From Escherichia coli (GTDB lineage: Bacteria > Pseudomonadota > Gammaproteobacteria > Enterobacterales > Enterobacteriaceae), in the NCBI RefSeq assembly GCF_013122565.1, contig NZ_CP053258.1: DNA of 64,000 nt, one strand, 5' to 3'. Position 1 is the stretch's first letter; each line of letters opens with the position of its first letter. The translations under genes were made by a program, and so were the position numbers. Positions 38,711 to 49,277 of the stretch are shown in pieces. The notes under the pieces were generated by a model. That model worked only from the letters and a program-made list of their open reading frames with translations. It did not search any database and was not told the origin of the DNA.

Positions 38711-39367
38711 TTATTTAATTTTATAAAACGATAACCGTCCACTCTCCGGCGAGCCGGTATCAATATAAACTTGATTGGCAAATGTCTGGATATTGGTAAA
38801 CATCATATGCCCGAAGATAAAACAGTCTGCACCGTTTATTTCTTTTAACTCTCCCTTGAATGATTTCTGCACGCGATCAACAGGCCAGAGTAATTCTCTT
38901 TCTGCTATTTCTTTACCAAACTGATATTCATCACCCGGATAATCCGCATGTGCGATGACATATTTTATTCTGTCGTTAGTGATTTCAATAATATGTGGAA
39001 GGTGATGAAATTTCAGCAACAGATCTATTGCCTCTTGTTGCTCTGAATCATTTAAATCGAAAAACCAGTCACCACCGCTGGCAAGCCACATGTTGCCATC
39101 GCCGGTCGCGAACGCATCCAGCGCCATTGCTTCGTGGTTGCCTTTAACGGAGATAAACCAGGGCTGGTTTAGCAGGCGCAGGACGCTAAGACTCTCCGGC
39201 CCACGATCAATATTATCGCCGACAGAAATAAGTAAGTCGGTTTCGGGGAAAAAAGAGAGTTGATGTAAACGGGATTGTAATAACTGATATTCACCATGAA
39301 TATCACCAACGACCCATATATGGCGATAGTGACGGGCATTGATTTTTTGATAGCGTGTAGATGGCAT
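38711..39367 (-). CDS. pphB: Serine/threonine protein phosphatase 2 (lambda-phosphatase-like)
   Basis: 218 aa; metallophosphatase motifs GDIHG, GDNIDRG, GNHE; adjacent to mutS. Confidence 0.88.
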   Translation of the reverse strand: MPSTRYQKINARHYRHIWVVGDIHGEYQLLQSRLHQLSFFPETDLLISVGDNIDRGPESLSVLRLLNQPWFISVKGNHEAMALDAFATGDGNMWLASGGDWFFDLNDSEQQEAIDLLLKFHHLPHIIEITNDRIKYVIAHADYPGDEYQFGKEIAERELLWPVDRVQKSFKGELKEINGADCFIFGHMMFTNIQTFANQVYIDTGSPESGRLSFYKIK

Positions 39368-39472
39368 GGTTTTACCCTGTAAAATAAGCTTTCCTATTAT
39401 ACAGGGTATTTTTATTTGATTCGTCAGTTGTCGTTAATATTCCCGATAGCAAAAGACTATCGGGAATTGTTA

Positions 39473-42034
39473 TTACACCAGACTCTTCAAGTGATAAATC
39501 CACTCCAGCGCCTGACGCGGGGTCAGTGAATCCGGGTCGAGATTTTCCAGCGCTTCCACCGCGGGCGAGGTTTCTTCCGGCACTGAAAGCAGCGACATCT
39601 GCGTACCATCAACCTGCGTAGCGGCGGCATTCGGCGAAATGCTCTCCAGCTCGCGCAGTTTCTGCCGCGCACGCTTGATCACCTCTTTCGGCACACCCGC
39701 CAGCGCAGCAACCGCCAGGCCGTAGCTTTTGCTCGCCGCGCCGTCCTGCACGCTGTGCATAAAGGCAATGGTATCGCCGTGCTCCAGTGCATCGAGATGC
39801 ACGTTGGCGACGCCTTCCATTTTCTCCGGTAACTGGGTCAGCTCGAAATAGTGGGTAGCAAACAACGTCAACGCTTTAATCTTATTCGCCAGATTTTCCG
39901 CGCACGCCCACGCCAGCGACAGACCATCGTAAGTGGACGTTCCACGCCCAATCTCATCCATCAGCACCAGACTGTACTCGGTGGCGTTATGTAAAATATT
40001 GGCGGTTTCGGTCATTTCCACCATAAAGGTTGAACGGCCGGAAGCCAGATCGTCCGCTGCCCCTACGCGGGTAAAGATGCGATCGATAGGTCCAATCTCG
40101 ACTTTTTGTGCCGGTACATAGCTGCCGATGTAGGCCATCAACGCAATCAGTGCGGTCTGGCGCATATAGGTACTTTTACCGCCCATATTCGGACCGGTAA
40201 TGATCAACATGCGACGCTGCGGCGACAGGTTCAGCGGGTTGGCGATAAACGGCTCATTCAGCACCTGTTCAACCACCGGATGGCGGCCTTCGGTGATGCG
40301 AATACCCGGTTTATCAATAAAGGTCGGGCAGGTGTAGTTCAGGGTATAGGCCCGCTCTGCCAGGTTAACCAGCACATCAAGTTCTGCCAGCGCGCTTGCG
40401 CTCTGTTGCAACGCTTCCAGATGCGGCAACAGCAGGTCGAACAGCTCTTCATAAAGCTGTTTTTCCAGTGCCAGTGCTTTGCCTTTTGAGGTGAGAACTT
40501 TATCTTCGTACTCTTTTAGCTCTGGAATAATGTAGCGTTCGGCGTTTTTCAGCGTCTGGCGGCGCATGTAGTTAATCGGAGCCAGGTGGCTTTGCCCACG
40601 GCTGATCTGAATGTAATAGCCATGCACCGCGTTAAAGCCAACTTTCAGCGTGTCCAGGCCGGTACGTTCACGCTCGCGGATTTCCAGACGCTCCAGATAA
40701 TCGGTCGCGCCGTCAGCCAGCGCGCGCCACTCATCCAGCTCTTCGTTATAGCCCGATGCGATAACACCACCGTCGCGTACCAGCACTGGCGGTGTGTCGA
40801 TGATTGCTCGCTCCAGCAGATCGCGCAGCTCGGCAAACTCGCCCATCTTCTCACGCAGCGCCTGTACCGGTGCACTATCGACGCCTTCCAGTTGCGCACG
40901 AAGTTCCGGCAGTTGCTGGAAAGCGTGACGCATACGGGCCAGATCGCGTGGGCGAGCGGTACGCAACGCCAGACGCGCCAGAATACGTTCCAGGTCGCCG
41001 ACCTGACGCAGTACCGGCTGCAGCTCGGCGGTGAAATCCTGCAATGCGCCAATAGTTTGCTGGCGCTCAAGCAACACGCGGGTATCGCGCACTGGCATAT
41101 GCAGCCAGCGCTTCAGCATACGGCTACCCATCGGCGTTACAGTGCAGTCGAGTACGGAAGCCAGCGTGTTTTCCGCACCACCCGCCAGATTCTGGGTGAT
41201 TTCCAGATTTCGACGCGTCGCGGCATCCATAATGATGCTGTCCTGCTCACGTTCCATGGTGATAGAACGAATATGCGGCAGGGTTGTGCGTTGGGTATCT
41301 TTCGCATACTGCAACAGACAACCGGCAGCACAAAGTCCGCGCGGCGCGTTCTCGACGCCGAAACCAATCAGATCACGAGTACCAAATTGCAGGTTCAACT
41401 GCTGGCGCGCGGTGTCGATTTCAAACTCCCACAGCGGGCGACGGCGCAGACCGCGACGACCTTCAATTAACGACATTTCAGCAAAATCTTCTGCATACAG
41501 CAGTTCCGCCGGATTAGTGCGTTGCAGTTCTGCCGCCATCGTTTCCCGGTCAGCCGGTTCGCTAAGGCGAAAACGACCGGAGCTGATATCCAGCGTCGCG
41601 TAGCCGAAACCTTTACTGTCCTGCCAGATAGCCGCCAACAGGTTGTCCTGACGCTCCTGCAACAGCGCTTCATCACTGATGGTGCCTGGCGTAACGATAC
41701 GCACAACTTTGCGCTCAACCGGACCTTTGCTGGTCGCCGGATCGCCAATTTGTTCGCAGATGGCAACGGACTCGCCCTGATTCACCAGTTTGGCGAGGTA
41801 GTTTTCCACCGCATGGTAGGGGATCCCCGCCATCGGGATCGGCTCGCCCGCTGAAGCGCCGCGTTTGGTCAGTGAAATATCCAGCAGTTGCGACGCGCGT
41901 TTTGCGTCGTCATAAAACAGTTCATAAAAATCACCCATCCGGTAAAACAGCAGGATCTCGGGATGCTGGGCTTTCAGCTTGAGATACTGCTGCATCATGG
42001 GCGTATGGGCGTCGAAATTTTCTATTGCACTCAT
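39473..42034 (-). CDS. mutS: DNA mismatch repair protein MutS
   Basis: 853 aa; Walker [10 protein letters not shown]. Confidence 0.97.
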
Positions 42035-42280
42035 GGGGTTATGTCCGGTTCCCTGATATTAAATGGGGTGTGATGGTTTTTATTTTCGTTGTAATCACAT
42101 AAGGCGCACATGATACCGGAGTTAATCATTTCAGGGGAAGAAGCGAACGGCGAGTTCTTGATGCTGGTTCCGGGAAAGATGCTGTTTTGCAGCTTTTGCG
42201 TGATGCTTATGAAGCAAGTACGCAAAATTGTATCGGTTGAATAAACCTCCTCCTTCAGAGCCATAGTCCCCTTTCAAATT

Positions 42281-42303
42281 AAGTTGTAGTATAAATACAC
42301 CTT
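42281..42303 (+). promoter_or_regulatory. Candidate NsrR-type operator upstream of ygbA
   Basis: aagttgtagtataaatacacctt, an imperfect AT-rich inverted repeat about 20 bp upstream of ygbA; the match to the NsrR consensus is approximate and from memory. Confidence 0.3.
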
Positions 42304-42320
42304 AAGAGTATGGAGGCAGT

Positions 42321-42674
42321 ATGTCCGGCAAGCGTATCTCTCGTGAAAAACTGACGATTAAAAAAATGATCGATCTTTATCAAGCGAAATGCCCGCAGGC
42401 GTCAGCGGAGCCGGAGCATTACGAGGCGTTGTTTGTTTACGCGCAAAAGCGGCTGGATAAATGTGTGTTCGGCGAACAGAAACCAGCCTGTAAGCAGTGT
42501 CCGGTGCACTGTTACCAGCCTGCAAAGCGTGAAGAGATGAAACAGATTATGCGTTGGGCCGGGCCGAGAATGCTGTGGCGTCATCCGATCTTAACCGTGC
42601 GTCATCTCATTGATGACAAGCGTCCGGTGCCAGAACTGCCGGAAAAATATCGTCCGAAAAAACCTCGTGAATAG
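42321..42674 (+). CDS. ygbA: Nitrous oxide-stimulated promoter family protein YgbA
   Basis: 117 aa, Cys-rich (CPQ...CKQCPVHC); conserved neighbour of mutS and fhlA. Confidence 0.85.
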   Translation: MSGKRISREKLTIKKMIDLYQAKCPQASAEPEHYEALFVYAQKRLDKCVFGEQKPACKQCPVHCYQPAKREEMKQIMRWAGPRMLWRHPILTVRHLIDDKRPVPELPEKYRPKKPRE

Positions 42675-42710
42675 TATGCCGGACAGGCAGATCTGTCCGG
42701 CAATTTGCAG

Positions 42711-44789
42711 TTAAATCAATGCCGATTTATCAATTCCAAGCCGCTTCATCCGTGACAGCAGGGTCGTGCGTTTCAGCCCCAGACGTTGCGCAGCGCCTTT
42801 AGGCCCGGCAACCACGCCATTAGTTTCTTTCAGCACGCGCACAATCAACTGATATTCATCTTCGCCCTCCTGAGCGACAACCGTTGCGGCAGGCGGCGTT
42901 TCAGGTTCCGGTAAAGCAATATCTGGCAATGACAGCTGCAGCACGTTACCGCGTGTTAGCAATACCGCGCGCTCAATGACGTTTTCCAGTTCGCGTACGT
43001 TACCCGGCCACTCCATGTTGCTCAAGGTGCGCAGCGTCTCGGCAGGAATGCTGTCGATATTGCGCCCCAGACGACGGGCAATTTTGAAGGTAAAGGCTTT
43101 CGCCAGCAGAGGAATATCTTCCGGACGCTCGCGTAGTGGCGGCAGGTGAATCGGGAATACGTTCAGGCGGTAATAGAGATCGCTACGGAACTCACGGTCG
43201 GCGACCATTTTTTTCAGATCGCGGTTAGTCGCGGCGATTAGACGCACGTCCGTCTGAATGATTTTGTTGCTGCCGAGACGTTCAAACTCCTGTTCCTGTA
43301 ATACACGCAGCAACTTCGGCTGTAACTCCAGTGGCATATCGCCCACTTCGTCGAGGAACAGGGAGCTTTTATCCGCCAGTTCAAAACGACCAATGCGCTG
43401 GGCGCTGGCACCGGTAAAAGCTCCGCGTTCATGACCAAACAGATCGCTTTCCAGCAATCCGGCAGGCATTGCCGCGCAGTTCATTTTGACCATGCGGCGA
43501 GTATTACGTCCACTGAGATTATGGATAGCGCGGGCAATCAGCTCTTTACCCGTGCCAGTTTCACCGAGGATCAGCACGGTACTGTCACTTTGCGCCACCA
43601 TTTCAACTTGTTTAAGCACGCTGTACATGGCTTCGCTGCGGCCAATAATCTCGCCAAATTCACTATCAACATTGTTGAGCTGCTCGGTCAGGGCGAGGTT
43701 TTCATCAACCAGCCGTTCTTTCAGACGATGGATTTCCTGATAGGCGAGGGCGTTATCGACAGCGATTGCCACACGTTCGGCAATCTGGCGCAGTAAATTC
43801 AGATTGGTAGTGGTAAATACTTTCTCTTCGCATTGCGCCAGTTTCAGCACGCCCAGCATGGTGTCGCCAGACATCAGCGGTAACAGGCACAAGGTTTGAA
43901 TCTGGTTGCCCCAGGTGTCGAACAACATACGTTCATAGGGGGCTAAATCGTCCCGCTCGTGGAGATTGATCAGCAGCATCTCTTTACTTTTGAACACGCG
44001 TTCGGTGAGGGTTCCGGCTTCATCGACTTCACTCTGTTCGTGGGCGGGATGCTGTTTATCAAGATAGTGAGTGGAGTAGATGTTGAGTTTGTTTTTACGG
44101 TGGCTGCGTAAGACGATACTGATATCGTCAATATCGAAATAGTAATGGATTTCTTTGGCGACTTCGCTGACCAGTTCGTCCATATCCAGGCGGGAAAGCA
44201 CCGCGTTGGTGATGGCGACCAGGATGCGGAAGTTATCGCGTTCCCGGCATAACAACTCATAGTCAACATTGTTAACGACGCGACTCTGGATTTGTTCGGT
44301 GACGACAGAAACGATCTGCGTAAATGTTTGCAGACGATTGAACTCTTTTTCGCTCCAGGGGCGATCGTCATAACGAATAAATTCACAGCCACCAAAAATA
44401 TGCCCTTCTGCCGCCAGTGGCATCAGGCAATAGTGACCAAATTTTGGGTATAGCCCACCTGCGGCCAGCTGCGGCCAGGTTTCACAAAATTCTTCGTAAC
44501 TGCAATGCAGCGTATCAGGGCGCGACAAAATGCTGCGTACCGGACCGTGTGCCAGAACAGTTTCGTCTTCATATTTAATGGGGGTGTCTTTTTCACGCGA
44601 CGCGTAATAAGACGCACGTTGAGTCTGCGCTTGCCACAACACGATAGCCGCGTTGTCGGCGAGCGCAGAACGCTTTACCAGTTGCGAAAGAGCCTCACAC
44701 AGCGAGGCCAGATCGGGCTGCTGCAATAGTGTCCGAGTGATGTCGAACAACCCTTGCTGTCCGAGATCACTCATCGGTGTATATGACAT
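42711..44789 (-). CDS. fhlA: Formate hydrogenlyase transcriptional activator (sigma-54 enhancer-binding protein)
   Basis: ORF track 42711..44825; start at MSYTPMSDLGQQG gives 692 aa; GAF domains, AAA+ sigma-54 interaction module (GETGTGKE, GAFTGA), C-terminal HTH. Confidence 0.95.
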   Translation of the reverse strand: MSYTPMSDLGQQGLFDITRTLLQQPDLASLCEALSQLVKRSALADNAAIVLWQAQTQRASYYASREKDTPIKYEDETVLAHGPVRSILSRPDTLHCSYEEFCETWPQLAAGGLYPKFGHYCLMPLAAEGHIFGGCEFIRYDDRPWSEKEFNRLQTFTQIVSVVTEQIQSRVVNNVDYELLCRERDNFRILVAITNAVLSRLDMDELVSEVAKEIHYYFDIDDISIVLRSHRKNKLNIYSTHYLDKQHPAHEQSEVDEAGTLTERVFKSKEMLLINLHERDDLAPYERMLFDTWGNQIQTLCLLPLMSGDTMLGVLKLAQCEEKVFTTTNLNLLRQIAERVAIAVDNALAYQEIHRLKERLVDENLALTEQLNNVDSEFGEIIGRSEAMYSVLKQVEMVAQSDSTVLILGETGTGKELIARAIHNLSGRNTRRMVKMNCAAMPAGLLESDLFGHERGAFTGASAQRIGRFELADKSSLFLDEVGDMPLELQPKLLRVLQEQEFERLGSNKIIQTDVRLIAATNRDLKKMVADREFRSDLYYRLNVFPIHLPPLRERPEDIPLLAKAFTFKIARRLGRNIDSIPAETLRTLSNMEWPGNVRELENVIERAVLLTRGNVLQLSLPDIALPEPETPPAATVVAQEGEDEYQLIVRVLKETNGVVAGPKGAAQRLGLKRTTLLSRMKRLGIDKSALI

Positions 44790-44862
44790 TTTGTTCTTCC
44801 AGGAAAGCACCGCAAAGCGGTGCAAAAGGTCATTGACTAACTATAGGAGATTTAGAATTTTA

Positions 44863-45873
44863 TTAGCATATACGCGGAAGCGGTTCGGCGTGTGGTAAAT
44901 CGAGGGTTCGTTTCACGCCATACAGACCGGCAAGACGAACACCTTTACGTTCCACCACTTCACCAATCAGCGCCGCGTCTTTCCCCAGTGGATGGGAATG
45001 TAACGCTGCCAAAACTTGCTCTGCCGCGTTGCGTTCAACGGCGATCACCAGTTTGCCTTCATTGGCAAAGTTAAGGGCGTCCAGTCCCAGTAGTTCGCAA
45101 ACGCCGCGCACAGCAGGTTTAACCGGCAGTGCCGCTTCTGAAAGTTCAATACCGCAACCGCAGGCTGCCGCGAACTCATGAACCACCGCGTTTACACCAC
45201 CACGGGTGGCATCACGCAGCGCTTTCACGCCGGGAATGTCACGCAGCGTCTGAATAAGCGGCGTCAGCACCGCGCAGTCGCTGACCAGTTCGCCATCCAG
45301 CCCCAGTTGCTCACGCAGGTTAAGGATAGTCGCCCCGTGGTCGCCGAGTGTACCGCTCACCAGCAACACATCGCCTGCACTTAACGTTTGTGCGCCCCAG
45401 TGAATATTCGCCGGAATTGCGCCCATGCCAGCGGTGTTGATAAACAGTTTATCTGCCGCGCCGCGCTGCACCACTTTAGTATCGCCAGTAACGATGGCAA
45501 TGCCTGCCGTGCGGGCGGTTTCTGCCATGCTGGTCACTACGGCTTTCAGTGTCTCCATCGGCAATCCTTCTTCGAGGATAAAGCCACAGGAGAGATAGCG
45601 CGGAATAGCGCCACTGACCGCAACGTCATTGGCGGTGCCGCAAATCGCCAGCTTGCCGATATTACCGCCAGGGAAGAACAGCGGGTCAATAACGTAACTG
45701 TCGGTGGAGAACGCCAGACGGTCGCCTTCCGCTACCAGTTGCGCCAGATCAAGACGTGCCTGATCTTCCTGCTCTGCCAGCCACGGGTTGGTAAAGGCTT
45801 CCATAAACAGGCTGTTGATTAATTGCTGCATCGCCTGGCCGCCGCTGCCGTGGGCGAGTTGGATATTATTCAC
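44863..45873 (-). CDS. hypE: Hydrogenase maturation carbamoyl dehydratase HypE
   Basis: 336 aa; C-terminal PRIC motif. Confidence 0.95.
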   Translation of the reverse strand: MNNIQLAHGSGGQAMQQLINSLFMEAFTNPWLAEQEDQARLDLAQLVAEGDRLAFSTDSYVIDPLFFPGGNIGKLAICGTANDVAVSGAIPRYLSCGFILEEGLPMETLKAVVTSMAETARTAGIAIVTGDTKVVQRGAADKLFINTAGMGAIPANIHWGAQTLSAGDVLLVSGTLGDHGATILNLREQLGLDGELVSDCAVLTPLIQTLRDIPGVKALRDATRGGVNAVVHEFAAACGCGIELSEAALPVKPAVRGVCELLGLDALNFANEGKLVIAVERNAAEQVLAALHSHPLGKDAALIGEVVERKGVRLAGLYGVKRTLDLPHAEPLPRIC

Positions 45874-48691: not shown

Positions 48692-49153
48692 ATGACTATT
48701 TGGGAAATAAGCGAGAAAGCCGATTACATCGCACAGCGGCATCGTCGCCTACAGGACCAGTGGCACATCTACTGCAATTCGCTGGTTCAGGGGATCACGT
48801 TATCGAAAGCGCGCCTGCATCACGCCATGAGCTGCGCGCCGGACAAAGAACTCTGTTTCGTCCTTTTTGAACATTTTCGTATTTACGTCACCCTGGCGGA
48901 TGGCTTTAACAGCCACACCATCGAGTATTACGTCGAAACAAAAGATGGCGAAGACAAACAGCGGATTGCGCAGGCGCAACTGAGCATTGACGGCATGATT
49001 GATGGCAAGGTCAACATCCGCGATCGCGAACAGGTTCTGGAACACTATCTCGAAAAAATCGCTGGCGTTTACGACAGCTTATACACCGCTATTGAAAACA
49101 ATGTGCCGGTGAATTTAAGCCAACTGGTAAAGGGACAAAGCCCGGCAGCATGA
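48692..49153 (+). CDS. hycA: Formate hydrogenlyase regulatory protein HycA
   Basis: 153 aa; first gene of the hyc operon, divergent from hypA. Confidence 0.92.
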   Translation: MTIWEISEKADYIAQRHRRLQDQWHIYCNSLVQGITLSKARLHHAMSCAPDKELCFVLFEHFRIYVTLADGFNSHTIEYYVETKDGEDKQRIAQAQLSIDGMIDGKVNIRDREQVLEHYLEKIAGVYDSLYTAIENNVPVNLSQLVKGQSPAA

Positions 49154-49277
49154 GCTGAGGCTTTGCCCGTTTTGCAGGCGTTACGCCTGTTTGGGGATGG
49201 GCGTGTCGATGAGTGTCGAAAATGACATTTCATCAGCATGTTTTCGTCAAAAATGACAATCACCTGAGGAATGCCTG

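Follow-up and report, generated by a model that had tools for sequence, protein, structure and literature searches.

The 23-mer AAGTTGTAGTATAAATACACCTT, which occupies exactly positions 42281-42303 of a 64-kb stretch of Escherichia coli chromosome (the window, meaning the whole stretch analysed), is very probably the NsrR operator at the promoter of ygbA, where it would mediate repression by exclusion of RNA polymerase until nitric oxide (NO) is encountered. Four lines of evidence underlie the assignment as operator: what the 23-mer reads, how it scores against an NsrR matrix, its correspondence in position to E. coli sites already published, and dyad-symmetric conservation. NsrR repression of ygbA and binding in vivo (in K-12) are known from the literature on other strains; the allele in the window is classed as an operator by its sequence. 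The feature is already known, being the NsrR operator of ygbA, which occurs here as a rare E. coli allele. Added here are a phylogenetic footprint that fixes the operator boundaries and a putative -10 hexamer within the left half of the repeat. The import is small beyond correct annotation, by which ygbA of this strain is placed in the nitric-oxide stress regulon.

Gene Context and Architecture of the Site

The site lies in the 286-nt intergenic region between mutS (39473-42034, minus strand) and the regulated gene ygbA (42321-42674, plus strand). The product of ygbA, a 117-aa protein, matches the Pfam family YgbA_NO (PF11756, E=1.7e-40, 138 bits), and the next gene is fhlA (42711-44825, minus strand). 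This mutS(-)/ygbA(+)/fhlA(-) layout is confirmed by the RefSeq annotation of the homologous loci of K-12 and Combat11I9. A first-pass annotation had placed an AT-rich inverted repeat about 20 bp ahead of the ygbA start; the repeat is present exactly at the positions given there, and the distance between the 23-mer and the ATG (42321) measures 17 nt.

The operator, to which no strand is assigned, is an 11-1-11 inverted repeat, AAGTTGTAGTA-T-AAATACACCTT, whose arms, parted by a spacer of 1 nt, can pair at 8 of 11 positions. The promoter-distal left half-site, AAGTTGTAGTA (42281-42291, plus strand), is the weaker half with 8.4 bits and agrees with the half-site consensus AAGATGCATTT at 7 of 11 positions. 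The right half-site (42293-42303), which reads AAGGTGTATTT on the minus strand, reaches 13.3 bits and agrees at 9 of 11; a half-site score of at least 12 is reached at just 2 positions of the 64 kb, of which this is one. A search for an extra half-site in the intergenic region gave a next best candidate of 8.6 bits at 42176, which was rejected, as the window holds 63 positions of that score class. Downstream of the operator, the sequence GGAGG (42312-42316, plus strand) reads as the Shine-Dalgarno element of the ygbA ribosome-binding site, and a purine-rich block ahead of the ATG is conserved in ygbA orthologues.

An Rfam scan of 41900-42800 (E<=1) gave no match, so that no known RNA element accounts for the inverted repeat. 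The sole intergenic match to an FNR box, GTGATGCTTATGAA (42200-42213), has 2 mismatches, a quality of match that occurs 56 times in the window; it was therefore discounted as evidence for an FNR box. The intergenic region also carries an open reading frame of 44 aa (42110-42244, plus strand) that had no match in a Pfam search. It is annotated by PGAP as a hypothetical protein in many E. coli genomes, is 59 aa long in some and is unannotated in K-12. On the other side, ygbA and fhlA converge on a G+C-rich hairpin, GCCGGACAGGCAGATCTGTCCGGC (42679-42702), which probably serves both genes as a bidirectional terminator; the list returned by a terminator scan does not contain it.

Scoring Against Known NsrR Sites

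The scoring matrix was built from the 27 NsrR sites of 23 bp tabulated for E. coli CFT073 (Mehta et al., 2015; PMC5320621, Table 4). With ygbA removed, and with c0118 and c0233 sharing one 23-mer, 25 distinct 23-mers remained for a symmetrised log-odds matrix. A second matrix was restricted to the 16 ChIP-seq-positive sites. Under the 25-site matrix, which derives from a single study and in part from sites that are computational predictions only, the site at 42281-42303 scores 22.7 bits and ranks first among the 63,978 positions of the window. It is also first with the ChIP-positive matrix, at 22.9 bits. The training sites themselves range from 12 to 32 bits, with hmp at 21.2 bits, below the ygbA site, and ytfE at 32. 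From the exact score distribution, the probability of such a score is 1.2e-8 per position, so that chance would supply 0.0008 matches in the whole window and 3e-6 in the 286 nt between mutS and ygbA. The earlier annotation had described the repeat as loosely matching the NsrR architecture. The match itself stands and "loosely" does not, as it understates the fit of what is the top-scoring site of the window; the matrix score, obtained without ygbA in the training set, falls within the range of the ChIP-seq-positive sites.

The second-best match in the window, AAATGACATTTCATCAGCATGTT (49220-49242, 18.3 bits), is situated between hycA (48692-49153) and hycB (49278-). It is identical, bar one G-to-A change, to the published CFT073 "hycB" site, which is ChIP-seq-positive for NsrR, indicating that the matrix recovers real NsrR sites.

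The K-12 ygbA promoter aligns with the window without gaps and presents AAGATGTAATATAAATACATCTT at the same columns, so the NsrR site sits here and not at another place between mutS and ygbA. Comparison with the K-12 promoter and matrix scoring, both of which had been proposed as checks, thus bear out the assignment. The two sites share the locus, the 17-nt distance to the ATG and the 11-1-11 architecture, and 20 of 23 bases are identical. The three substitutions (A4T, A9G and T20C) leave the score level (22.7 bits in the window vs. 22.8 in K-12). The CFT073 ygbA site, AAGTTGTAATATAAATGCACCTT, is the reverse complement of AAGGTGCATTTATATTACAACTT, the ygbA 23-mer listed as a predicted NsrR site in that strain (Mehta et al., 2015; PMC5320621, Table 4). 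It belongs to the same site and promoter haplotype family as the window and is identical at 21 of 23 bases, the window having G9 where CFT073 has A and A17 where CFT073 has G.

The canonical NsrR operators of ytfE, hcp and hmp follow the consensus AAGATGCATTT-N-AAATGCATCTT, also given as gATGyAT-N5-ATrCATc (Rodionov, 2005). The ygbA site shares with them the 11-1-11 dyad, the AA/TT ends, the GYA/TRC cores and a place within the promoter of a gene induced by NO. Unlike the canonical operators, its left half is off consensus at positions 11 and 12 (plus 9 in the allele of the window), and the site scores 22-23 bits compared with 32 for ytfE.

Conservation Across Enterobacteriaceae

One genome per species was scanned with a YgbA alignment, which yielded 80 loci from 80 species of Enterobacteriaceae, including Escherichia, Citrobacter, Salmonella, Enterobacter, Klebsiella, Raoultella, Kluyvera, Lelliottia, Leclercia, Kosakonia, Rahnella and other genera. 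When the 200 nt ahead of ygbA are scored, the top 23-mer is located 12-25 nt from the ATG in all 80 loci. The upstream site scores at least 15 bits in 70 of the species, while control blocks of 200 nt from the same loci never exceed 13.6 bits. The right half outscores the left in 68 of the 80 orthologous sites.

When the loci are anchored on the site, a gap-free block of 23 bp is the sole conserved element upstream of ygbA. Its columns carry about 1.5-2 bits at positions 1, 2, 6-8, 11, 12, 16-19, 22 and 23, and the flanks 0-0.3 bits. The conserved positions mirror one another about position 12, which is the dyad symmetry expected of a dimeric binding protein. A MAFFT alignment, made independently of the matrix, places the gap-free conserved block at exactly 42281-42303, with weaker conservation for 2 nt on either side. 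In Hafnia, ygbA has another gene neighbourhood and retains the site (16.4 bits). An orthologue from Erwinia sp., also in a different gene context, has no strong NsrR-type site near its start; the best match there reaches 8.9 bits, 152 nt upstream.

These conservation data contradict the reading of the repeat as a functionless, A+T-rich palindrome that arose by chance. Such an origin would find some support in the palindrome by itself, which is unremarkable, since 95 of the 23-mers in the window attain the same 8 of 11 arm complementarity. It would leave unexplained a gap-free block shared by 80 species amid flanks that are otherwise unalignable, as well as the best matrix score of the window. 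Within Escherichia, moreover, only 5 of the 23 positions vary, although the site sits in a patch of 81 nt in which K-12 and the window differ by 25%. We consider the chance origin to be of negligible probability and retain the NsrR operator as the explanation of the repeat.

Predicted Promoter Architecture

A consensus scan of 41950-42800 found no sigma-70 promoter, a blank that is attributable to a weak -35. The promoter was therefore placed from conservation among orthologues rather than from the scan. The putative -10 hexamer is TAGTAT (42287-42292, plus strand), preceded at a spacing of 17 bp by a candidate -35 hexamer, TAGTCC (42264-42269, plus strand), which is weak and agrees with TTGACA at 3 of 6 positions. 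The transcription start, predicted solely from the position of the -10 about 7 nt further on, would lie at 42299 (plus strand).

The placement of the -10 draws on the pattern TAnnAT, found at site positions 7-12 in 78 of the 80 species (TATTAT in 51, TAAAAT in 8, TAGAAT in 7 and TAATAT in 6). The commonest base of the orthologous sites differs from that of the matrix at positions 4, 7, 11 and 12. Position 7 is fixed as T in the orthologues where the consensus has C or T, position 11 is A instead of T in 97% of species, and position 12 is fixed as T, though the spacer is otherwise free. Together with an invariant A at position 8, these departures at 7, 11 and 12 spell TAnnAT. The remaining difference, G rather than A at position 4, concerns a position that is weakly determined in the matrix. 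Upstream, (T/C)TG is conserved at -16 to -14 relative to the site, 17 bp ahead of TAnnAT, with the G present in 72 of the 80 species. An alternative -10, TATAAA (42290-42295), was rejected: other species lack the final T there, and TAnnAT at positions 7-12 is nearly invariant.

By this arrangement, the left half-site of the operator would contain the -10 hexamer, a placement to which the comparative data lend modest support. A -10 so placed would account for the departure of the left half from the NsrR consensus in all the species examined. Relative to the predicted start, the operator would cover approximately -19 to +5.

The same evidence raises the question of whether the conserved block represents no more than the core promoter of ygbA, made up of -10, discriminator and start region, and resembles an NsrR site only because promoter sequence is A+T-rich. 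The near-universal TAnnAT is what such a promoter would leave behind, and an A+T-rich background raises the chance expectation about 100-fold. Even with a background of 70% A+T, however, just 0.07 such matches are expected in the 64-kb window. Furthermore, AA at positions 1-2, G6, TGCA at 16-19 and TT at 22-23, for which there is no sigma-70 role, are conserved as strongly as the -10 and are mirrored about position 12, and there is genetic evidence of NsrR control in two species. A promoter without an operator is thus a highly improbable account of the block, which is better read as an NsrR operator that would overlap the predicted promoter.

Regulation of ygbA and Proposed Mode of Repression

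Placement of ygbA in the NsrR regulon, already claimed in the first-pass annotation, agrees with published genetics as well as with the matrix and with the K-12 and CFT073 sites. The gene was named as an NsrR target in 2005, as a personal communication (PMC1274295). As cited in a later study (PMC5320621), regulation of E. coli ygbA by NsrR was observed with a reporter fusion (Bodenmiller and Spiro, 2006), and NsrR was found bound at the K-12 ygbA promoter by ChIP-chip (Partridge et al., 2009). In a Salmonella nsrR mutant, ygbA mRNA is raised 31.8-fold (PMC2884951). In a nitrate-grown triple mutant of CFT073, ygbA ranks among the genes with the strongest upregulation, together with other known NsrR targets (PMC5320621).

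A dimeric regulator other than NsrR, for example the Rrf2-family protein IscR or an unidentified factor, might chiefly bind the repeat, the effects of NsrR on ygbA then being indirect. Rrf2 paralogues do recognise related A+T-rich dyads, which speaks for such a regulator. So does the ChIP-seq of CFT073, which gave no peak at ygbA, an outcome regarded by its authors as a probable false negative (PMC5320621). Against it, a matrix derived from NsrR gives the site a score like those of ChIP-positive sites, the K-12 ChIP-chip experiment is cited as having located NsrR itself at this promoter, and derepression of ygbA in nsrR mutants is large, as the Salmonella data attest. Control primarily by another protein is therefore very unlikely, and NsrR is kept as the regulator that would occupy the site.

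NsrR is an Rrf2-family, iron-sulfur, NO-sensing repressor. A dimer of holo-NsrR would bind both 11-bp half-sites, that is, the left one with the predicted -10 (42287-42292) and the right one with the predicted start (about 42299), and would in this way exclude RNA polymerase. Nitrosylation of the NsrR cluster by NO would release the repressor and allow ygbA to be transcribed. As the -10, the -35 and the start are inferred, occlusion as the mode of repression is likewise an inferred one. The presence of nsrR in the genome from which the window comes is assumed; we take the gene to lie far from mutS on the K-12 map and thus did not expect it within the 64-kb window.

A precedent for start-proximal repression is provided by hmpA of Vibrio vulnificus, in which the footprinted NsrR site spans -2 to +18 and loss of the Fe-S cluster frees the DNA from NsrR (PMC8175989). 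Both promoters would carry a single 11-1-11 site over the start region of a repressed promoter, with the start being a predicted one in ygbA. In contrast to hmpA, which is another gene in another species, the ygbA site is predicted to cover the -10 hexamer, some 16 bp upstream of where the hmpA site lies.

Alleles and the Divergent Promoter Patch

Allele counts come from 5426 complete E. coli genomes, searched for exact 31-mers that comprise the site and 4 nt to either side. The K-12 type is present in 2111 genomes, AAGTTGTAATATAAATACACCTT (S21 type) in 1300, the CFT073 type in 1120 and AAGTTGTAATATAAATGCATCTT (O157 type) in 682, and the type of the window is rare, with 34 of the 5426. A lone A-to-G change at position 9 (42289) separates the allele of the window from the S21 type. 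It falls in the left NsrR half-site and in the putative -10 hexamer alike; G at this position is also found in Citrobacter orthologues. The sampled E. coli strains vary at site positions 4, 9, 17 and 20 only, and one non-coli Escherichia has C at position 16, which makes up the total of variable positions for the genus. With a uniform-background matrix, all five alleles fall between 20.0 and 22.4 bits, so there is no sign of the window allele being defective.

The patch around the site (42240-42320, 81 nt), which comprises the ygbA promoter, the operator and the 5' UTR, differs from K-12 at 20 positions. Beside it there are 0 differences from K-12 over the 260 nt to the left (41980-42239) and about 1% in the ygbA coding sequence to the right. 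The patch occurs in two old haplotype families, both of which are also present in non-coli Escherichia. The two families agree at the core positions for NsrR, in TA..AT of the putative -10, in the G of the putative -35 and in the Shine-Dalgarno sequence. The divergence of the patch was likely caused by short-patch recombination in the mosaic mutS region. It is conceivable, though unlikely, that variants of the ygbA promoter and operator are selectively kept (or spread by short-patch recombination) and set lineage-specific basal or NO-induced levels of ygbA.

The mutS side, compared with K-12 over 38714-42034, is uneven, with 0-15 differences per 100 nt, which is consistent with a mosaic, recombined mutS. 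The fhlA side (42714-45013) shows 0-4 differences per 100 nt, except for one 100-nt block with 6.

The locus is also variable in content. E. coli p4A (NZ_CP049085.2, 1501-3206) is without ygbA: 207 nt into the intergenic region, its match to the window breaks off and gives way to a truncated fhlA pseudogene, which indicates a deletion that took out ygbA and the operator. In CFT073-like strains, ygbA encodes 114 aa and is directly followed by a TOBE-domain gene rather than by fhlA. The similarity of CFT073 to the window stops at query base 628, so that E. coli is polymorphic both for the 3' end of ygbA and for the gene that comes after it.
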